Positions 2,269 through 32,252 of a DNA stretch of 39,671 nt are shown in pieces. The translations under genes and the position numbers were made by a program. Below the pieces are notes generated by a model. That model was not told the DNA's origin, made no database searches, and saw nothing but the letters and a program-made list of their open reading frames with translations. The stretch spans positions 1 to 39,671 of the forward strand of contig CAYJMB010000002.1 of NCBI GenBank assembly GCA_964371455.1, read 5' to 3'. The first letter of the stretch is position 1. Every line of letters begins with the position of its first letter. This stretch comes from an uncultured archaeon. GTDB taxonomy: Archaea > Aenigmatarchaeota > Aenigmatarchaeia > GW2011-AR5.

Positions 2269-4389
2269 CTAGAAAAGTTTTAATCCTGACATGATATTTT
2301 TCAGCAGCGACAGGATATGGAAATTTATCATGTAACTGCTGACAGCCCGTGCTGATGGGAGGTTTGTTAACATTCCAGTAGTTTGTACCGGCGAGTCTTT
2401 TTTGGTTTGTGATGCTGTTTTATTCTCTACTTGCGAGATGACAAGAGATGCGTTTTCTGTTGTCAGATCTATTGCATCTGCCAATACAGTTGCATTTAAT
2501 AATGACCTGCTGATTATAATTTCCACCGTCTTGTCGTATGTTTTGTTTGATTTGGCCCTTATTCTCAGATAATAGACACCTTCACTGATATCTTCTTTTA
2601 TTTTATTTTGCAGGATTAGCGTCATATTTTTTGATGCATTGAGGCTTACTGCTACAGGGTTTGGCACCCATCCACCTTCGCTGGCCAGGGAAGAGCCCCT
2701 GAACACGTAGGAATAAACAGAAATGTTTTTCCTTACATCAAAAAGATTCTTTACCATGGCTGTTGTTTTTAGCTCATCGCCTGTGACTGCTGTTTCATTG
2801 TAAGAAAGGACATCGATACCGATGGTATTTTCAGTCTGCCGGAAAGGAAGGCCACTCGTTGAAGATGAAGAACTGCTTGAAGTGCTCCCTGAGGCAGAAG
2901 ATTGCGGCGGGCAATTTGTTCCTTCGATGGTGAGGGAAGACGACACAGTTATGTCCAAACCTGAGACGAAGAGTGCATGCGAGCCGCTCTTGATAGAGCT
3001 GTCGCAGTTCTGCTTTATCTGGACAGGAACTTTTAGCCTGTACATTTTGTATTTATCATTGACGTGTACAGTGCTGACGCTACTGGATTTTTTGCCATCT
3101 TTTTCTGTCCACAAGTCTACTGCATATTTGGCTGTGTTGCCTTTGTAGATCTCTAATTCCACAAGAACAACATCTCCGAATTTTGTGATGTTGTCATGAC
3201 TGATTATTAATATTGATGATCCGTTGCTCTGGGCTGCGCCTTTTACTGCTAATGATGCTGCGGCTTCTATCTCTGTCATGTTATTACAGGTTGCGTTGAC
3301 AACTTTTGAACGGATTATGTATGCCTGGCTACCGTTCAGATCAGGAGGCGTCCAGTCGCGAGATACGGACTTATAGCATTTCATCTCTTGAGTGGTGTTG
3401 GTCTTTTCCTTTGCTGCAGCGCCAAAGAGATCCTCGATCCAGTACTCGATAGTCACGTTATGATCCTTGTTCTCGCATTTTGTGTCGTTCAGTTCGATAA
3501 AATACCGGAATGACTCCGATGCGTTGGCAAAAATTGGCGTCAGAATACGCACAGAAATAAAGCACTGCACTAGCGAGGAAAGGACAGATATCTGGGAGCA
3601 GCTGGACTGGTTTTCGTATGCGGTTGTCAAGTTCCAGCAGAGCGTCAGATTGCCTGTCGCCAGAGGATAAAAAGAAGCCAAAGTGACTGAGCAGGAGATA
3701 TTCTGGGCAAAGTTTTCTGATTTGCTGTACGTTGCATTTGTCAGATTGTACTGAAGTGTCATGTCTACACTTTCACAGGAATCAGCACTTAGATTAAATA
3801 GAGAATAATTTATATTTTCCATGAACGTTGTTGAAAAATTAACCGCAAATTTTGGCAGCTTTTTGTTTTGCGAGCCTGGCGTGGGTGTACACTCTTGCAA
3901 GGTTGAATTGGACTCGGGATAAGCGCAAAGGGTTTTGTTATTGTTGGCGCCGCCAAGGGATGAATTATAGTAAAGAGATGCTGAGTGTGTGGTGTTGGAC
4001 AGATACAATGTTTCATTATTGTTTGAGAGACCACCGCAGAGCGTGCTTGCGTTTGTGTGAAGAGCGAGGCCAGATACATTGTAGTGATTATAGGCAAGCG
4101 TGCCTGACCCACCGTCTGTGATCACAGCAAAGCCGGCAGGCGGGAGGTCAAATGTCGTGTTGCTGTAGGTTTTGTTGTCAGTCTGGTTTACAAGGCCTTT
4201 CAATAAGGAGACATTGCAGAGAGTCCAGTTTTCCAGAGAGATTGTGTCGTTTGTCGGGTTATAGATTTCTATCCATTCGTCATAGCTCTCGTTCACGGGA
4301 GGGTCGTACATCACTTCTGTGATAAGCAAAGACGCATAAGCAGGAGTGATTAAGAACAGCAACAACAAGGCCGGAAACCATGGCTGCAT
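2269..4389 (-). CDS. Secreted cell-surface protein with N-terminal lamin-tail domain (LTD), Ser-rich linker and Ig-like repeats; predicted heavily N-glycosylated
   Basis: The likely true start is M61 of the ORF (ATG at 4389-4387), giving signal peptide MQPWFPALLLLFLITPAYA. An LTD signature follows (LLITEVMYDPPVNESYDEWIEIYNPT...ISLENWTL). I count 40 N-X-S/T sequons in 706 aa, plus a poly-Ser linker SSASGSTSSSSSSSTSG. Confidence 0.75.
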   Translation of the reverse strand: MQPWFPALLLLFLITPAYASLLITEVMYDPPVNESYDEWIEIYNPTNDTISLENWTLCNVSLLKGLVNQTDNKTYSNTTFDLPPAGFAVITDGGSGTLAYNHYNVSGLALHTNASTLCGGLSNNNETLYLSNTTHSASLYYNSSLGGANNNKTLCAYPESNSTLQECTPTPGSQNKKLPKFAVNFSTTFMENINYSLFNLSADSCESVDMTLQYNLTNATYSKSENFAQNISCSVTLASFYPLATGNLTLCWNLTTAYENQSSCSQISVLSSLVQCFISVRILTPIFANASESFRYFIELNDTKCENKDHNVTIEYWIEDLFGAAAKEKTNTTQEMKCYKSVSRDWTPPDLNGSQAYIIRSKVVNATCNNMTEIEAAASLAVKGAAQSNGSSILIISHDNITKFGDVVLVELEIYKGNTAKYAVDLWTEKDGKKSSSVSTVHVNDKYKMYRLKVPVQIKQNCDSSIKSGSHALFVSGLDITVSSSLTIEGTNCPPQSSASGSTSSSSSSSTSGLPFRQTENTIGIDVLSYNETAVTGDELKTTAMVKNLFDVRKNISVYSYVFRGSSLASEGGWVPNPVAVSLNASKNMTLILQNKIKEDISEGVYYLRIRAKSNKTYDKTVEIIISRSLLNATVLADAIDLTTENASLVISQVENKTASQTKKDSPVQTTGMLTNLPSARAVSSYMINFHILSLLKNIMSGLKLF

Positions 4390-4496
4390 ACTGTAACCTA
4401 CAACATTAATGCATAAAAATTGCAGGCAAATCGCACAATCTAGTTGAGAACATGACGGAAAATGTCTTTGTTGCGCATGGCTTGGAACACAGTCTT

Positions 4497-4723
4497 CGCC
4501 AAGGTTAACTATATATACTGGATTCAGACAATTAGAATAAAGAGTGAGACGCAATGAAAGGAATAACACCAGTTATAGCGATAATTTTGCTTCTGCTAAT
4601 AACAATCGCGATGGTCGGCTTCGCATTTGTCTGGTTCTCCAGGGTGGCAACCACATCAGGGACAAACATAGAGAGCCAGCTGAACACTACATTTGGGGCA
4701 AGCGGGAAAAAAGTCGGCATTGA
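4497..4723 (+). repeat. Direct repeat copy 1 (227 bp): pilin promoter, 5' UTR and first 56.7 codons
   Basis: Base-by-base comparison with 5490..5716 (offset 993) shows 226/227 identity. The single mismatch is 4514 t versus 5507 a. Confidence 0.95.
4509..4517 (+). promoter_or_regulatory. Candidate TATA box of pilin gene 1 (ctatatata)
   Basis: AT-rich TATA-like element 37 nt upstream of ATG 4554. A purine-rich GAGTGAG lies 6-12 nt upstream of the ATG as a possible SD. Confidence 0.4.
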
Positions 4724-4955
4724 TGCAATCAGCGCCGCGGCAGCTGCTGTTTCAATAAGGAATACAGGCAGCGCAACTATAGCAGCAGGAGAAATAGCTG
4801 TCTATGCTGGTGGCTCAGTTGTTGTGTGCACGCCTGCCTTGGGTTCGCTAGCTCCTGGTGCAGTCGCTACATGCGACTGGTCTGCAGGATCCTGCACCAG
4901 CGGGACAGTGATACGCGTCACAGCGCCTGGCGGATCCGATGAGACCACATGCTGA
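4554..4955 (+). CDS. Archaeal type IV pilin-like protein (class III signal peptide, Pilin_N/PF07790-like N-terminus)
   Basis: The N-terminus MKGITPVIAIILLLLITIAMVGFAFVWF matches the archaeal pilin pattern K/R-G-(I/V)-(S/T)-P-V-I followed by a hydrophobic helix. The C-terminal motif is SLAPGAV..C....C......IRVTAPG..DET.C. Confidence 0.8.
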   Translation: MKGITPVIAIILLLLITIAMVGFAFVWFSRVATTSGTNIESQLNTTFGASGKKVGIDAISAAAAAVSIRNTGSATIAAGEIAVYAGGSVVVCTPALGSLAPGAVATCDWSAGSCTSGTVIRVTAPGGSDETTC

Positions 4956-5062
4956 TTTGTCGTATACAAAACATTCACAGCAAGCGGTGGATGAATTGCC
5001 GCCGCATCTATTTCTGAAGGCGTGAGAAAAGAAAAGATGATGCAAAAGGAGGAAAACCGAAA

Positions 5063-5443
5063 TTATTTTATCATCTTTAGAGTTTCCTTCGCCACACCTC
5101 TAACTTCTTTATTAGGGTCGTTTTTGGCTATATTTTTAATTTTCTGAATAGCCGAAGAATTAAGTTTCCCAATTCGGCGCAGTGCATATATTGAATACTT
5201 TCTCACTTTGAAGTGTTCATCTTTTAAGGCCTTAACTAGGTAAGGAATTGCCTCTTCGCGCCGGAGCATTCCGAAAAGTTCTGCTGATCCAGCACGCACA
5301 TGCCAATCTTTGTCTTGTAAAATTGATTTTGAGAGAAACGGTATTGCTTTATACCCAATCCAACTTACAGCAACAGCAGCATACCAACGAATACTCCATT
5401 GTTTGATATTGCTACCAGGTGTACCCAGTGTTTTAAGAAGAGA
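5063..5443 (-). pseudogene. HEAT-repeat (PBS-lyase HEAT-like) gene fragment, 5'-truncated
   Basis: The track ORF 5063..5299 starts at GTG. The HEAT-repeat reading frame stays open 48 codons further upstream (…IRWYAAVAVSWIGYKAIPFLSKSILQDKDWHVRAGSAELFG…) to a stop at 5444-5446, with no ATG/GTG/TTG in that stretch. Repeat units of type D.D..VR..A...LG...AIP.L are visible. The fragment is AT-rich. Confidence 0.5.
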
Positions 5444-5489
5444 TTATAAAACTTTCCACAAATTTAGGTGACGTTTACTTTGCAGCCCA

Positions 5490-5716
5490 CGCCAAGGTTA
5501 ACTATAAATACTGGATTCAGACAATTAGAATAAAGAGTGAGACGCAATGAAAGGAATAACACCAGTTATAGCGATAATTTTGCTTCTGCTAATAACAATC
5601 GCGATGGTCGGCTTCGCATTTGTCTGGTTCTCCAGGGTGGCAACCACATCAGGGACAAACATAGAGAGCCAGCTGAACACTACATTTGGGGCAAGCGGGA
5701 AAAAAGTCGGCATTGA
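5490..5716 (+). repeat. Direct repeat copy 2 (227 bp)
   Basis: Same comparison as copy 1. Identity ends abruptly after ...aaaaaagtcggcattga (4723/5716). Confidence 0.95.
5502..5510 (+). promoter_or_regulatory. Candidate TATA box of pilin gene 2 (ctataaata)
   Basis: Same position as in copy 1. The only mismatch between the two repeat copies lies inside this element. Confidence 0.4.
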
Positions 5717-5951
5717 CTCAAGAACTACGACGGTAGTTGCAGTCAGGAATATCGGGAGCGTGACACTTCAGACTTCAGAGATATCTGTTTATGTGGACGG
5801 CGGCTTGAGGACATGCACATGGGCTGGCGCTATAACGTCTCTTGCACCAGGGGCTGTAGGGAGCTGCACATTCAGCGGCGCTGCCTGTGCCGGGCCTGCC
5901 AGAATAAGGGTGACGGCACCGGGAAATGCGGACGAGACTGCGTGCCCGTAA
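5547..5951 (+). CDS. Archaeal type IV pilin-like protein, paralog of 4554..4955
   Basis: The first 57 aa are identical to the paralog. The C-terminal half is roughly 45 percent identical by eye and keeps SLAPGAV.SC and IRVTAPG.ADET.C. Confidence 0.8.
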   Translation: MKGITPVIAIILLLLITIAMVGFAFVWFSRVATTSGTNIESQLNTTFGASGKKVGIDSRTTTVVAVRNIGSVTLQTSEISVYVDGGLRTCTWAGAITSLAPGAVGSCTFSGAACAGPARIRVTAPGNADETACP

Positions 5952-6150: not shown

Positions 6151-6897
6151 TTATTCGCACTTTGCAATAAATTTCATATTTTCTGTAACTTGGTTTCTTA
6201 TTTTTTCTACGTTATTAACTGCGAAACGTGACTGTATTTTCAGATACATTTCCAGAGGCTCCTGATGCTCTGGTTTGTAGTTGAGAGTCGTGTTGGTGCC
6301 AATGAATTCAAGCAAAGGCCAGAGATTGGTGTTCACTGCCATCCTGCTCACTTCTATCGTATTCGAAGAATCAAATCCCCAGAGCTTCGGCGAGGGACAG
6401 TGCACCTCGAGGAAGACAAAACCGGATACGGATTTTGCTTTCAGCAGCTTTCTCATGTAGTCTTCGGGAAATGATGGAGAAGCCGTTGCTGCGTACCTTG
6501 CGCTGACAAGATGTACCAGCTGCTTCTCGACATCTGATCTGGAACTGCTAGAAGATGAGCCTGCATTGTTGCAGCATACGTAGACTATATTTTCCTGAAC
6601 ATTCTTGAAAGAAGCTATGTATTTTTTGGTTGCGATATCTCCGGCAAAGACCAGTACCAACTGTCCTGTTGCTTTTGCGAGGCCTCTGGCAGCAGCGAGC
6701 GGATTTTCTGATACGATAGAGCTTAACTTCAAATATGGAGCGTTCTTTGACATCGCTCCCGGAGAAAAAACAAGAAGGAACCTTTTGTCTGCAAATGCCT
6801 GGAGCGCGAGCTTCATTGCAATCATCCAGCCCTCACCATGATCTGCAACAGTATTTCCAAAAACCTGTTTTGGCTGGACTATCAGATCAACTACCAT
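6151..6897 (-). CDS. porB: 2-oxoacid:ferredoxin oxidoreductase beta (TPP-binding) subunit-like, motif-degenerate
   Basis: PorB-like blocks are present: LVLVFAGD, NIVYVCCNN, YAATASPSFPEDYMRKLLKAK, HCPSPKLWGF, AVNTNLWPLLEF. The N-terminal Cys pair region reads VADHGEGW, and GDG...NxxxxNTG reads GDI...NNAGSSSSSS. Confidence 0.7.
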   Translation of the reverse strand: MVVDLIVQPKQVFGNTVADHGEGWMIAMKLALQAFADKRFLLVFSPGAMSKNAPYLKLSSIVSENPLAAARGLAKATGQLVLVFAGDIATKKYIASFKNVQENIVYVCCNNAGSSSSSSRSDVEKQLVHLVSARYAATASPSFPEDYMRKLLKAKSVSGFVFLEVHCPSPKLWGFDSSNTIEVSRMAVNTNLWPLLEFIGTNTTLNYKPEHQEPLEMYLKIQSRFAVNNVEKIRNQVTENMKFIAKCE

Positions 6898-6912: not shown

Positions 6913-7347
6913 TTACCTGTTTGCCATTCTTTTTAACTTATTCTTCATGTCATCTATTTTCCGGTGCAGCTCTTTTATGCGTGAGTCAAGAATGGTCTCC
7001 TGGCCTGGCAGAAAGTACCATGTGCCGAGCTCTTTATACCCTTTTCCCAGATAGACACGCTTTATAGGAAGTCCGCGGCGCGATGCCATGAGGAACAATT
7101 CATTGTGCTTGGGAAATTTGTGCATGACATGGACAGCAGCAACCGGCCCATGTAATTTCAGGAAGGTAATAAATTCATTGATGTTGCCCTGCTCAGGCTT
7201 GCGCAAGCCCTTTACCCAATGGTATACTGCTGAATAAGAAATGCCAAGCTGCTTTGCAATGTCCCTGATACCCTTGCCCTGATTGTAAAGCGCGACAGCC
7301 TCATCGTATGTCTTTCCGTAGAATTCGCGGCCTCGGCGAAGTTTCAT
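6913..7347 (-). CDS. Helix-turn-helix DNA-binding protein, function unknown
   Basis: N-terminal HTH: GIRDIAKQLGISYSAVYHWVKG. It ends 15 nt upstream of porB on the same strand. No transposase catalytic domain is present. Confidence 0.5.
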   Translation of the reverse strand: MKLRRGREFYGKTYDEAVALYNQGKGIRDIAKQLGISYSAVYHWVKGLRKPEQGNINEFITFLKLHGPVAAVHVMHKFPKHNELFLMASRRGLPIKRVYLGKGYKELGTWYFLPGQETILDSRIKELHRKIDDMKNKLKRMANR

Positions 7348-17610: not shown

Positions 17611-17733
17611 TGCTCCCACCGGGATTCGAACCCGGGTACCCGCAGCTCACAGAATACCTGCAAGCTTCCACGGCTCTCTTTTTCCTGATGAAACGAAAGG
17701 CCGCTATCCTTGACCGGACTAGACTATGGGAGC
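17611..17733 (-). tRNA. tRNA-Glu(TTC), interrupted: an 18-nt canonical intron plus an unresolved 29-30 nt insertion
   Basis: The reverse strand reads GCTCCCA TA GTCT AGTCCGGTCAA GGAT A GCGGC CTTTCG [18 nt] A GCCGT ...34 nt... CCGGG TTCGAAT CCCGG TGGGAGC A. The anticodon is at 17697-17695. Confidence 0.8.
17676..17693 (-). other. tRNA-Glu intron at 37/38 with a textbook bulge-helix-bulge motif
   Basis: The anticodon stem is GCGGC/GCCGT. The central 4-bp helix is CTTT/AAAG, flanked by 3-nt bulges CG|T and AG|A on opposite strands. The distal helix is TTC/GAA with loop ATCAG. Confidence 0.8.
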
Positions 17734-28473: not shown

Positions 28474-31400
28474 TTAATGACCTGAACATCCGCAGCCTCC
28501 ACCACCACAGCCGCACGTTCCATGATCAGAAGCTTTATCTTGAATAACTGTGAGAGATGTCTCTTTTCTTTTTGCGAGCTCCTGGGCTGCTGCCTGCTTG
28601 ATATCGTCAACGCTGCAGCAGTCTCCAGCAAGAGCACCGCCGCTTGCCGGGTGGCTCATTGTAGGTTTCTTTGGGAAGTGAGAAACTCCAGACTTGCCTG
28701 CACCTGCGGGCATAGGGAATGTGATGGCAGGTTCTTCGGCATTTGCAACTTCTTCGTCTCCCCAGTCTGCTTCAAAGTACTGGCGCGTCTTGAACTTGCG
28801 GTGCTTGTCAAAATTCGCTTTGATCGCGAGCATCTCCTCTTTTGTAAGCCTGCGGTGGTACTTGTCCTTTGAGAGCTGCTTGCCTGTTTTCTTCTCCCAC
28901 TCTGAGAACGGAATGGAGAATTTTCTCTGTATGCGGTCTCTATACAATTCAGGGATAACGTTGAATGTGCAGAACGGAATAACGCGGCCGTCAGGAGTTG
29001 CGTAGTGAATATCACACTTGTGTATGCGGTCTATATCCCAGTTGAACGGGTCCTGGAAGTGCATCATACCGATGAATAAAGAATTCTTGTGGAAGTCTGC
29101 GAGACCGTGATAGTTGCCGCCCTGCATGGCTCCTGTGAGCATGCGGACGAACTTCAGATTCTTTGGCTTGTGCTCTTCGTCAACATACTTGCGGATGTTC
29201 CACATAAGCTTTGCCAATACCCAGGATTTTCGCATCTTCTTGTATTTGGCATTGTTGATCTCTCGCGTCAGTTCACCGAGATAGTCAAAGAAGCCATCAA
29301 TGTCAAAGAAGCGCGTAATAGGGACGAGCTTCATGTTATCGCCATCACCGTCTTTGAAAACATACGTTGCCATGCCGCAGGCGAAGTGGATAGAAAGACG
29401 ATACTTAGGCTCATCTTTCAGGGCTTCCACGAAATCTGTGACCTGCTTTGCGCATGGCACAGGGAAGAAATCCTCGCGCCCGACCTGGCCGTCTGTCTGC
29501 TCTTCAATACGCTTGATTGCTCCAGGGATTGTAATCCTCTGTCTCTTTCTTAGCTGGTCTGGCATTCTGCCGACAAGAGAGACAGGCTGGAAATTGACAG
29601 AGCGCACTGTGTCAATATTGCCCGCGCCAAACCGGATGATGTCACCGAGCTCGTGGTCATTTACACCGCCTATGACTGTCGGCACAAGCACAACGCCAAG
29701 GCCGGCTTGCCTGCAGGACTCAATGGCTGACTGGGCTTCCCAATAGTTTTTTGGATTTGTTTCAGGCGCCATACCATCAAAGCTCATGTAGAGATTGTTC
29801 ACACCTGCTTCACGGATTTTTTTTGCAAGTTCAGGGTCTTTGGCAAGATTTACTCCATTCGTATTGAGCTGGACGTGGTCGTATCCAATTTCTTTGGCAG
29901 CTCTGATAATATCAGGAAGATCTTCACGCAAAGTTGGCTCGCCGCCTGTGATCTGCACTGCATTGGCACCGACAGGCTTGATATTTCTCATCCTGCGCAG
30001 CATGAATTTTATCTGGTCCATGCTGGGCTCATAAATAGGCTCGCCTTCTTTTGCATAAAAGAAGCAGTTGCTTACAAGGATCCCGTCACCTGCCAAAAAC
30101 ACATGTTCCATATTCTCTACTTCAATATCGTACACATATTCTTCTGTTTGTCTTGCCAGAATTTCCTTTACTTCATCTACAACAAAGTCTCCAATCCTTT
30201 CGATCCTTGCCCCTCTTCGTGGCGTAAGCCCGAGAAGCCTGGCTTTGTGGCCTTGCCGAAGGTCCAAAGCAGCAGCGAGTTTTTCCATGTCTTTGCCCGA
30301 TACATAAATCTTGTGCAAGTCATAGTTTGCGCCTTTTATCTTTTCTTTGGGAACTGTATAGATGCGGCAGAATACACCCAGCGAAGACAGCAAATACATG
30401 ACATCTCTTGCCAATCCTCTGGAAACAGTTGCCAGTCCCATGCTGGCATGCCTTTTCCCGCGCGTAACAAAACCATCTCCATTAAACAGGCCGCTTAACA
30501 GTGCTGTCTTTAATGCGTAAGGCATGCCAAAAAACATCTTTGGAACCCTTTTTCCTGAAGCTTTCTCAGGAATGCCTAATACATACTTGAAGACAAGTCT
30601 CATATTCCTGGAACCAATTACGATCTGCGGTGCCTTGCCATACTTTTCAAGATTAAGAGTACTGTACTGAAGACCCAGCCTCTTTATGCAGTCTATAATT
30701 TCGACTGCATGCATTTTGTCCTTGCATGTTATGCGCAGGTCTTTGTATGTGTAGTGCCCGTTGGCAATAAAGTAGCCTATAATTTTTGCCAAGTCCTTGC
30801 TTGTTTTCAGCCTTCTAGGAAGTTTTTCCTTGGTTGCATCCCTTCCAAAAGTAACTTCATGATTTGTGTCCGGCAGTTTGTAAAATTCAGAAAGCGGCAT
30901 AGTATCCCGTGATCGCCAGCTATAGAAAAGCCCGCCTGAAGTACCTGTCAGGGCAGCTCTCACATTGTGGACATATATTTTTTGTTTTTCCACGTCAGGA
31001 ATAGCTGAAAATGCTTCAAGAAGGTCTATCTCAATCTCGTGTGCAGCGGGCAGAGCCGCGCCTGCCAACAGTTTATCGCCGATTTTTAATTCGCTGGCCG
31101 GCTTCTTTAAAAGGTCCTTGCCGTCTAACATCGCAAGCATGTGTTCTGGCGTGACTTTGATGCGCCTTCCCGTCTTTGTTCTGACCTCCAATAAAGAGCC
31201 TTTGTACGGCCTTGTGAAAACTTTTTTTATTTTTGCCCATGTCGCAATACCTGAGCTGAATGTCAGGGTTTCTGTGCCATCCAAATATGCGAATTCGCCT
31301 TCGATATCGTTAATTTTGATTTTTGTGGGCTGACTGCCCGGTATATTTAACAATGTCTCTATTTTCTCAAGAGACACTACCCCATTTCTTCTGACTATCA

Positions 31401-31914
31401 ATTCCTCTTCCCCCGGGAGACAATACCAACAAGTCAAGTCGCAGCGGTTTGTAATTACGATGTTGCCCAGTCCTGTATGGGACTCATGTTCAACACAAAG
31501 GCCGCAATCAGTGGGGCAATCAATATCAAACTTGCTCTTGTCTATGTGCGGATTGAGAATCTTGATTCCAGGGTCCTGGAAGCGCTCTGCTTTCTTAAAC
31601 ATCTCGTAGTCAGACCAGTAGAGCTCCTTGGTCACGCCGTGCTCTACGCAACTCTTGATGACCCATACTTTGTTGTTGCGGGCATATGTGACTGCGTCGA
31701 TCTTAATCCTGTCCCATTTTTCCTCGTCCACGCATCCCGGGCACAGGCTCTGGTGAAATTTCAGGACAAGAGTATCTGCGGGTAAAAGAGAAAGAAGAGC
31801 CTGTTTTCTTTCATGAGTGAAATTCTTAACATAGGGCGATGTCGGGACAATTTCGATATTCTGTGTAACTTCTTTCGGGTCGTGTGTAATAGCTTGCGGG
31901 TATGCATTTACCAT
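28474..31914 (-). CDS. Radical SAM enzyme of the MJ0619/Tes (tetraether lipid synthase)-like family, interrupted by an intein
   Basis: N-terminal zinc-ribbon pattern SLCPGC...SCVEHG. Second Cys site CPTDCGLCVEHESHTG. Radical SAM motif NRCDLTCWY-C, split by the intein. GGEPTL SAM-binding block downstream. SD GGAGGT lies 7 nt before ATG 31914; the alternative upstream ATG is 31953. Confidence 0.8.
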   Translation of the reverse strand: MVNAYPQAITHDPKEVTQNIEIVPTSPYVKNFTHERKQALLSLLPADTLVLKFHQSLCPGCVDEEKWDRIKIDAVTYARNNKVWVIKSCVEHGVTKELYWSDYEMFKKAERFQDPGIKILNPHIDKSKFDIDCPTDCGLCVEHESHTGLGNIVITNRCDLTCWYCLPGEEELIVRRNGVVSLEKIETLLNIPGSQPTKIKINDIEGEFAYLDGTETLTFSSGIATWAKIKKVFTRPYKGSLLEVRTKTGRRIKVTPEHMLAMLDGKDLLKKPASELKIGDKLLAGAALPAAHEIEIDLLEAFSAIPDVEKQKIYVHNVRAALTGTSGGLFYSWRSRDTMPLSEFYKLPDTNHEVTFGRDATKEKLPRRLKTSKDLAKIIGYFIANGHYTYKDLRITCKDKMHAVEIIDCIKRLGLQYSTLNLEKYGKAPQIVIGSRNMRLVFKYVLGIPEKASGKRVPKMFFGMPYALKTALLSGLFNGDGFVTRGKRHASMGLATVSRGLARDVMYLLSSLGVFCRIYTVPKEKIKGANYDLHKIYVSGKDMEKLAAALDLRQGHKARLLGLTPRRGARIERIGDFVVDEVKEILARQTEEYVYDIEVENMEHVFLAGDGILVSNCFFYAKEGEPIYEPSMDQIKFMLRRMRNIKPVGANAVQITGGEPTLREDLPDIIRAAKEIGYDHVQLNTNGVNLAKDPELAKKIREAGVNNLYMSFDGMAPETNPKNYWEAQSAIESCRQAGLGVVLVPTVIGGVNDHELGDIIRFGAGNIDTVRSVNFQPVSLVGRMPDQLRKRQRITIPGAIKRIEEQTDGQVGREDFFPVPCAKQVTDFVEALKDEPKYRLSIHFACGMATYVFKDGDGDNMKLVPITRFFDIDGFFDYLGELTREINNAKYKKMRKSWVLAKLMWNIRKYVDEEHKPKNLKFVRMLTGAMQGGNYHGLADFHKNSLFIGMMHFQDPFNWDIDRIHKCDIHYATPDGRVIPFCTFNVIPELYRDRIQRKFSIPFSEWEKKTGKQLSKDKYHRRLTKEEMLAIKANFDKHRKFKTRQYFEADWGDEEVANAEEPAITFPMPAGAGKSGVSHFPKKPTMSHPASGGALAGDCCSVDDIKQAAAQELAKRKETSLTVIQDKASDHGTCGCGGGGCGCSGH
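30067..31422 (-). mobile_element. Intein (452 aa) with LAGLIDADG homing-endonuclease domain
   Basis: It starts with Cys (CLPGEEELIV) and has block B VTPEHML, LAGLIDADG motifs IIGYFIANGHY and LLSGLFNGDGFV, and block G GDGILVSN, followed by +1 Cys (CFFYAKEG). Excision restores CDLTCWYC. Confidence 0.85.
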
Positions 31915-32252
31915 CTGGATACCTCCTGTTCTGCAATACGCCTTCGGCGCCATACTTGTTTGCGATTAAATCCATGACTCTGCCATATAAACTTTTAGCG
32001 ATTTCTAAAAGTTATAAATGTATTAGCGTGAATGATATTTAAAGGTTGATGTGTCGGTGGGGAGACATATCATTCATGATTTTGTTGAAGTTTTTCAATG
32101 TCTTTACGTAATTCAAGCAAATAAGGAGTCACTACAGCTGCTGCTGAGATTGGTCTTCCCACAAAACGCCTCCAGAACTCAGTCCAATGTTCAGTAGCAT
32201 ATTCGAATAGTACCATTATAATCCTTTTAACCCTTTCCTCTAATTAATCTGC

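Follow-up and report, generated by a model that had tools for sequence, protein, structure and literature searches.

The window analysed here is a stretch of 39,671 nucleotides (contig CAYJMB010000002.1, positions 1–39,671, assembly GCA_964371455.1) from an uncultured archaeon of the Aenigmarchaeota (DPANN). It carries two tandem genes that encode archaeal type IV pilins: pilA (pilin A; positions 4554–4955, plus strand, 133 amino acids) and pilB (pilin B; 5547–5951, plus strand, 134 amino acids). The two genes share a nearly identical module of 227 nt, followed by 3′ halves that have diverged strongly. Module copy 1 (4497–4723, plus strand) comprises the promoter, the 5′ untranslated region (5′ UTR) and codons 1–57 of pilA; copy 2 (5490–5716, plus strand) comprises the same elements of pilB. 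On the basis of comparisons with two related genomes, we consider it likely that a recent ectopic gene conversion, directed mainly from pilB to pilA, homogenized this module, and that it was superimposed on an older exchange within codons 29–57. Copy 2 is the likely donor of most of the tract.

The two module copies were compared in register, at an offset of 993 nt. They match at 226 of 227 bases, as the initial annotation of this DNA had counted, and share a longest exact run of 209 nt; the sole mismatch is 4514 T/5507 A. Both borders are abrupt, within 1–2 nt. On the left, mismatches appear at 4493, 4495 and 4496, and farther upstream the identity is at the random level. On the right, mismatches appear at 4724 and 4725, and the rest of the coding sequence is 52 per cent identical (116/223). 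The step from 1/227 to 107/223 differences (Fisher p = 7e-39) confirms the earlier description of the loss of identity as stepwise rather than gradual. The upstream non-coding part is identical at 56 of its 57 positions. Synonymous divergence (dS) between pilA and pilB is 0.024 over codons 1–57 and saturated in the remainder. At the protein level, residues 1–57 are identical and the C-terminal parts agree at 36 of 74 positions (49%), close to the 45 per cent or so that had been estimated by eye.

The module is the only repeat of its kind in the window. A whole-window repeat search otherwise returned only a handful of chance matches of 28–34 nt with 74–79% identity, and the longest exact match expected by chance in 39.7 kb is calculated to be about 15 nt. 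There are just two pilin N-termini in the window, each with a promoter and an ATG; no further module copies or partial pilin genes were found in it by the repeat search combined with a six-frame motif scan. Two identical antisense open reading frames (ORFs) of 62 amino acids lie on the minus strand inside the module copies (4532–4720 and 5525–5713). They are a mechanical by-product of the repeat, and nothing points to their being genes.

The module consists of 57 nt before the ATG, codons 1–56 and the first two bases of codon 57, which encodes Asp in both genes (GAT/GAC); identity breaks at the third base of that codon. Its protein part corresponds to the three-residue leader, the entire predicted helix (residues 4–50) and the first residues of strand β1. 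The label ‘signal-peptide module’ used in the initial annotation is too broad, since only MKG would be cleaved off; the remainder is the H-domain helix 4–50, which would stay in the mature pilin, and the start of β1. A TATA-like box on the plus strand, at 4510–4517 (TATATATA) in copy 1 and 5503–5510 (TATAAATA) in copy 2, contains the sole mismatch, as had been noticed before. A Shine–Dalgarno-like GAGTGA, also on the plus strand (4542–4547 and, in copy 2, 5535–5540), is located 7–12 nt before the ATG and is a putative ribosome-binding element. We compared the upstream regions of 75 related pilin genes: many of them have a TATA-like element 38–47 nt upstream of the ATG, and GAGTGA or GGTGA recurs near −10 before many of them. 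The recurrence of both motifs supports the promoter and ribosome-binding assignments, and the earlier reading of the first motif as a TATA box is backed by the same data; the predicted promoter would start transcription near 4538–4541 and, in copy 2, near 5531–5534. The initial annotation had proposed that the mismatch might give the two promoters different strengths; the T and the A form of the box are both found naturally upstream of related pilin genes. No Rfam match was found in the module, and its RNA fold z-score (−0.58) is nothing unusual.

That the two products are archaeal type IV pilins follows from their N-terminal motif, a match to TIGR02537, a helix-plus-sandwich structure model and matches in the PDB; the initial annotation had recognized them as pilins, and the archaeal type IV kind can now be specified. 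Both proteins start with MKG followed by ITPVIAIILLLLITIAMVGFAFVWF, that is, with a short charged leader ending in K-G and then a long hydrophobic stretch. This arrangement typifies the class III (prepilin) signal peptides of archaea. Both pilins carry a prepilin-peptidase site of the form [K/R][G/A/S] ahead of the H-domain, at which cleavage is predicted, and KG-type sites (KGIS, KGQV) are tabulated for characterized archaeal pilins (Table 1 in PMC4371748). With both proteins, the model TIGR02537 (archaellin/type IV pilin N-terminal domain) reaches 21.9 bits (cut-off 20). Matches to the UpsA and UpsB models are weak, far under the equivalog cut-offs, and Pfam PF07790 (Pilin_N) gives only 9–12 bits against a threshold of 25.2, a precomputed PF07790 match being present on several members of the family. 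For the C-terminal part, Pfam returns only sub-threshold, CARDB-like matches. A large protein collection contains 256 relatives, and the named ones are Aenigmarchaeota hypothetical proteins, type IV pilins and ‘flagellin-like’ proteins.

An AlphaFold2 model based on 32 family members (predicted local distance difference test, pLDDT, 87.6) consists of helix 4–50 followed by a seven-stranded sandwich; in pilin A the immunoglobulin-like (Ig-like) head covers residues 54–133, and pilin B combines the same first 57 residues with a different head. The top Foldseek matches of the model are the pili of Pyrobaculum calidifontis (8fk7) and Haloferax volcanii (8fj5) and the Sulfolobus Aap pilus (8q30). 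In a profile search of PDB sequences, 8fk7 was matched at E = 5e-8. Archaeal type IV pilins are the subunits of adhesive surface filaments; where structures of such filaments have been solved, the helices at the N-termini make up the core and the Ig-like domains point to the outside.

Among its homologues, pilin A is closest to P0002 (80% identical protein), which is encoded by the contig JACQNX010000051.1 of another Aenigmarchaeota metagenome-assembled genome (MAG), hereafter L001. The gene order of L001 is syntenic with the window: a metallophosphatase, a Lamin-Tail-Domain (LTD) surface protein, pilA′ (coding for P0002), a spacer of 69 nt and pilB′. The flanking DNA of the two genomes is 84–87% identical. 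In L001, pilA′ and pilB′ differ at 49 of 224 module sites, versus 1 of 227 for the pair in the window (p = 2e-15). Over codons 1–28, pilA′ and pilB′ have a dS of 1.5 and a non-synonymous divergence (dN) of 0.065, the helix protein being almost unchanged; selection on the helix alone therefore does not preserve identity of the DNA. As outgroup we used L006 (CAYJRV010000012.1), a syntenic but more distantly related genome whose corresponding locus holds only one pilin gene, of the B type.

From coding nt 171 to the end, pilB is 87% identical to pilB′ and pilA 70% identical to pilA′, and any A compared with any B gives 52–56%; the pilB gene of L006 is 65% identical to pilB of the window and 68% to pilB′. 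Inside the module the paralogues of the window are identical, and outside it each gene is nearest to its orthologue. Such a pattern, as it emerges from these alignments, is the classical signature of gene conversion. It supports a history in which the 3′ halves represent old orthologous lineages and the promoter and the 5′ 170 nt would have been made identical very recently. The initial annotation had favoured gene conversion or recombination homogenizing the 5′ module over simple duplication and drift, and the comparison with L001 and L006 upholds this choice.

These data also bear on whether purifying selection alone, without any recombination, could keep the N-terminal part identical. Residues 1–28 are indeed nearly invariant throughout the pilin family, but residues 29–57 are variable, and in the window these residues, all the synonymous sites and the 57 non-coding nt are preserved as well. 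Because residues 29–57 vary in the family, protein constraint cannot account for the identity of the whole block, synonymous and non-coding sites included; and in L001 the helix is conserved as a protein at a dS of 1.5. We regard this explanation as practically untenable.

The diverged head-coding parts of the two genes (4724–4952 in pilA and 5717–5948 in pilB, both plus strand) have not evolved alike. Between the pilin A heads (window 4724–4952 compared with L001 6171–6399), dN is 0.229 and dS is 1.07; between the pilin B heads, dN is 0.052 and dS is 0.46. The nucleotide identity of the pilin A head to its orthologue (70%) is below that of the pilin B head (87%) and of the flanking genes (84–87%), which indicates either faster evolution or replacement of this head. 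Such divergence fits relaxed selection, or diversifying selection, acting on one head of the pair.

The direction of the transfer can be deduced from the upstream sequences and from the sites at which pilA′ and pilB′ differ. Between −50 and −8, module copy 1 matches the region upstream of L006 pilB at 40 of 43 positions and that upstream of L001 pilB′ at 38 of 43; copy 2 has one match fewer in each comparison. The module matches the region upstream of L001 pilA′ at only 13 of 43 positions ungapped (64% when gapped). The promoter and leader region of the module is therefore the ancestral pilB promoter, and a promoter of the pilB type now appears to drive pilA too in the lineage of the window. 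The TATATATA box is found in both L001 pilin genes and in L006, and so the A at 5507 is derived; the TATAAATA variant occurs naturally in another of the related loci (L021). At the 49 module sites that distinguish pilA′ from pilB′, the module agrees with pilB′ 26 times, with pilA′ nine times and with neither 14 times, and it follows that most of the tract moved from B to A. The last four of these sites (+152 to +163) are all of the A′ type. The final 20 nt or so look A-derived, and may reflect an exchange in the opposite direction or a patchy repair of heteroduplex DNA, hence more than one tract. Both the donor and the recipient copy have been retained, and the donor is identifiable as B-type for the promoter and most of the tract.

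Two successive episodes can be distinguished. Over nt 85–170, pilA′ and pilB′ are 86% identical, whereas pilB′ and L006 pilB are only 53% identical; this argues for an older exchange in codons 29–57. In the 3′ half, pilB′ is nearer to L006 pilB (68%) than to pilA′ (55%). The single difference in 227 nt, set against a dS of about 0.5–1 between the genomes, implies that the latest event was very recent. We had considered a 36-nt exact patch in L001, together with 13 sites at which the two genes of the window agree with each other but differ from an equally concordant pilA′ and pilB′, as proof of conversion in L001. This argument was dropped, because substitutions in the pilB lineage of the window before the copying explain the 13 sites equally well; the outgroup comparison gives the stronger evidence for the older exchange.

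Tandem pilin genes in related genomes were surveyed by scanning one genome per species (GTDB representatives), which gave 80 loci encoding pilin relatives. Besides the window, 12 of these loci carry tandem pilin pairs, and six of the 12 have long exact runs with sharp borders. The longest run, of 442 nt in L051, takes in the whole gene together with flanks of about 55 nt on the upstream side, beginning at the TATA box, and of no fewer than 40 nt on the downstream side. There are exact runs of 274 nt in L024 (from coding nt 78 almost to the 3′ end, with about 72% identity over the 77 nt before it), 142 nt in L022 (3′ part), 105 nt in L027 (beginning at the ATG), 66 nt in L020 (part of a 5′ region of roughly 200 nt that is nearly identical) and 36 nt in L001 (coding nt 90–125). 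The position of the tract varies and sometimes includes the head, and therefore points to generic recombination between tandem paralogues rather than to a dedicated system of 5′ cassettes. The survey suggests that such tracts may be common among the tandem pilins of Aenigmarchaeota.

Some of these loci have features of their own. In L024 (4001–4873) and L022 (4001–4770) the arrangement is the reverse of that in the window: identity is 100% over the 3′ part that codes for the head, and many synonymous differences lie in the first 77–90 nt or so, which encode the conserved helix. The two copies of L051 (3955–4439 and 4937–5421) contain fully identical pilin genes separated by a unique spacer of 583 nt, a layout much like the 993-nt spacing of the window; a small ORF resembling a membrane protein lies on the minus strand of this spacer. 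The pilin genes of L036 (1154–1629) and L037 (3921–4396), in the MAGs RIFCSPLOWO2_01_FULL_48_10 and GW2011_AR5, are identical over 476 nt including 80 nt upstream, which may mean very close genomes or a shared locus. No relatives turned up in a scan of viral contigs.

Several observations weigh against recent gene conversion from pilB to pilA as a complete account of the locus. To its left, the tract ends in DNA without homology between L001 pilA′ and pilB′, so that textbook conversion with homology on both sides is not the full explanation. The LTD–pilA intergenic region is 164 nt long in the window and 245 nt in L001, and only the first 35 nt of it can be aligned. As a further point, the direction was called from only one close relative and one outgroup. 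The distance between pilA and pilB is 591 nt in the window versus 69 nt in L001, and it includes a unique inter-pilin spacer of 534 nt (4956–5489) that is not found in L001. The spacer contains a HEAT-repeat frame on the minus strand, from 5063 to about 5445, which is open for about 127 codons and lacks any start codon before the HEAT-like sequence begins. The first possible start codon in it (ATG, GTG or TTG), a GTG at 5299, falls midway through a repeat; including the sequence upstream of this GTG raises the HEAT_2 score from 44.7 to 68.9 bits. The frame looks like the remnant of a gene truncated at its 5′ end, adjoining module copy 2. A second copy of the spacer was found neither in the window nor in L001, and the 80 loci contain no homologue of the HEAT frame. 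Since the LTD–pilA region is shortened and rearranged and a 534-nt HEAT-bearing segment stands to the left of copy 2, the past of the locus also involves one or more illegitimate junctions, insertions or deletions.

The module of pilB could, for these reasons, have been joined to the 3′ half of pilA by unequal crossing-over and deletion, or by a non-homologous template-switch copy of the promoter and 5′ segment of pilB. A left border in non-homologous DNA, an intergenic region that is shortened and unalignable past its first 35 nt, and a foreign segment with a startless HEAT frame next to copy 2 would all fit such an origin, as would the whole-gene copy in L051, with its promoter and its 583-nt unique spacer. 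We nevertheless think it unlikely. It requires several independent events (triplication, deletion and insertion) with coinciding end points, and it explains neither the A-type last 20 nt or so in both copies nor the older exchange in codons 29–57. Moreover, the tracts of L024, L022 and L027 start and end within homologous coding DNA, as conversion predicts.

The quality of the assembly also has to be considered, the window being derived from an uncultured Aenigmarchaeota population and the 227-nt repeat being longer than common k-mer sizes. Similar but non-identical 5′ regions, or 5′ regions of different strains, could have been collapsed into one consensus, or contigs could have been misjoined. 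Two scans of Joint Genome Institute (JGI) metagenome contigs for exact patterns and look-ups of the exact proteins gave no match to an independent assembly of this population, and the popping of assembly bubbles between highly similar stretches may have exaggerated the identity; these two points, too, count against a literal reading of the repeat. On the other hand, the tandem order pilA–pilB is seen in an independent MAG (L001), and direct repeats yield errors of copy number only, not the observed order of unique flanks. One mismatch survives within the repeat, which does not fit a plain duplication of one consensus, and comparable sharp tracts are found in several MAGs that stem from separate studies and were built with different assemblers. 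A collapse also needs copies that are already highly similar, which would still leave a step relative to the 52 per cent identity beyond; the true identity of the module could be at most somewhat under 100 per cent. An artefact is, in our judgement, even less probable than the crossing-over or template-switch origin.

A constant 5′ part and a variable 3′ part in a surface filament protein also recall programmed pilin variation, the deliberate joining by recombination of alternative C-terminal cassettes to a promoter and N-terminal module that stay constant, as in Neisseria or Moraxella. The initial annotation had named cassette-style exchange of C-terminal domains as an alternative. Programmed variation might be read into the divergence of the pilin A head, which exceeds the genome background (70% nucleotide identity versus 84–87%), and into the frequency of mosaic tracts among related tandem pairs. 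In Neisseria, one expressed gene (pilE) receives its variable part from many promoterless, 5′-truncated silent donors (pilS; PMC13321361). The process there also needs special initiating elements, among them a G-quadruplex-forming sequence close to the expressed gene. The genes of the window are likewise type IV pilin genes with a constant N-terminal and a variable C-terminal part and signs of gene conversion, but silent donors, transfer of the variable part and special initiating elements are all absent at this locus. In Moraxella (Piv) and in the shufflon of plasmid R64, inverted repeats bound the alternative 3′ segments and a site-specific recombinase is encoded nearby. Neither trait is present at the locus: no inverted repeats were found flanking either gene, and both genes are on the same strand.

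Other data likewise speak against programmed variation. Each copy belongs to a complete gene that has its own promoter and start codon, and the window contains no silent copies or partial pilin genes. A potential quadruplex motif, (G3+N1-7)3G3+, does not occur on either strand between 4000 and 6300. Pfam scans of 27 window ORFs, including most of those longer than about 200 amino acids, found no recombinase near the pilins. The ORF at 6913–7347 (minus strand), with a match to HTH_7 (the helix–turn–helix, HTH, domain of resolvases), was considered as an invertase and rejected: its product of 144 amino acids has only an N-terminal HTH and no recombinase catalytic domain, and it is a conserved neighbour of the pilin genes in about 28 of the 80 loci. 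Copying affected the constant segment rather than the variable one, and in other genomes the positions of the tracts vary freely. The suggestion of cassette-style exchange of C-terminal domains is accordingly abandoned, and we hold a programmed system at this locus to be very improbable.

Gene conversion directed mainly from pilB to pilA remains the preferred reading, and may have proceeded as follows. A very recent, non-reciprocal homologous recombination between the tandem paralogues would have overwritten the promoter, the 5′ UTR and the first 150 nt or so of pilA with pilB sequence; a short exchange in the reverse direction, or a patch of heteroduplex repair, would have left the last 20 nt or so A-type. 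The conserved helix-coding DNA would seed the recombination. Tracts that homogenize the heads, which occur in other genomes, were presumably purged by selection at this locus. As an outcome, the two genes now have in common a TATA box (bar one base), a ribosome-binding region, the MKG leader and helix 4–50, and encode heads that are about 49% identical. The two pilins could then be co-regulated, processed by the same prepilin peptidase and assembled by the same machinery, possibly into one filament, while exposing different surfaces.

The closest described parallel appears to be the set of six adhesion pilins of Haloferax volcanii. PilA1–PilA6 have an almost identical H-domain (30 amino acids) and different C-termini (Esquivel et al. 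2013; PMC4371748; PMC7002104). Their genes are located apart from the assembly genes, the H-domain is needed for assembly, and each pilin can form pili, with differing adhesion properties (PMC4371748; PMC7002104). The window similarly encodes two pilin paralogues with the same H-domain (residues 1–57 identical) and heads that are 49% identical. Unlike what is reported for Haloferax, the identity in the window is documented at the DNA level, includes the promoter and reaches residue 57, that is, it covers the whole helix. It can also be dated as recent and assigned, with the probability given above, to conversion between tandem genes; the host is a DPANN archaeon and the system is known here from its sequence alone. 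No statement attributing the identity of the Haloferax H-domains to gene conversion was found in the literature.

Partial homogenization of tandem filament-subunit genes within one genome is also known in bacteria. In Campylobacter, the tandem genes flaA and flaB exchange segments, according to the passages of PMC5126078 that cite Meinersmann and Hiett (2000), Harrington (1997) and Wassenaar (1995). Their products are bacterial flagellins with a fold unrelated to that of the pilins, and the two genes keep different promoters (sigma28 and sigma54), whereas in the window the promoter itself has been copied. In the lpl cluster of Staphylococcus aureus, a stretch conserved among tandem paralogues is the site of recombination (Tsuru and Kobayashi 2008, PMC2568036). 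As is proposed for the window, a conserved stretch seeds the reshuffling of variable parts and the ORF is not the unit of evolution. The lpl genes have a central conserved region, with 5′ and 3′ variable parts shuffled among many copies and strains; the window, unlike them, has two copies, homogenized at the 5′ end and promoter. A search of the literature gave no description of such an exchange for the pilins of DPANN or Aenigmarchaeota.

The pilin neighbourhood is conserved across Aenigmarchaeota (L001, L006, L012, L034, L037 and others). The gene for the LTD protein (2269–4389, minus strand), a large surface protein rich in N-glycosylation sequons, has matches in 16 loci. The ORF at 6151–6897 (minus strand), without a Pfam match and provisionally labelled porB-like, has matches in 32 loci. 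A functional tie of the neighbours to the pili is possible. No peptidase of the PibD/FlaK type and no ATPase or platform protein of the PilB/PilC type was found in the Pfam scans of the 27 window ORFs. The remaining content of the window looks chromosomal and includes subunits of pyruvate:ferredoxin oxidoreductase, Fe–S assembly proteins, repair enzymes and a radical S-adenosylmethionine (SAM) protein. The last (28474–31953, minus strand, 1159 amino acids) is split by an intein with a LAGLIDADG homing endonuclease (Intein_splicing, LAGLIDADG_3). An Rfam tRNA match extends over 123 nt (17611–17733, minus strand, 43.4 bits) and presumably represents an intron-containing gene; ARAGORN predicts no tRNA in the window.

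The pilin pair of the window adds a further case, from a group that has received little study, of a process already known, and implies no new mechanism. The locus provides a dated and direction-resolved case of concerted evolution of archaeal type IV pilin genes, in which the homogenized block includes the promoter and ends just past the core helix. Phylogenies and orthology calls of pilins would be misleading in these genomes unless the 5′ and 3′ parts are handled separately. The pili of DPANN archaea are prime candidates for attachment to the host, and a common core and promoter combined with different heads bears on the assembly, regulation and surface diversity of these filaments. It is conceivable, though doubtful at present, that frequent conversion between tandem pilins is a standing mechanism in Aenigmarchaeota, and perhaps in DPANN, that maintains an interchangeable core and promoter together with mosaic heads. 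If so, the 227-nt direct repeats would also permit reversible loss or amplification of a head by recombination, and a genome-reduced symbiont could vary its host-attachment filaments, or evade viruses that bind its pili, cheaply and with no dedicated machinery.

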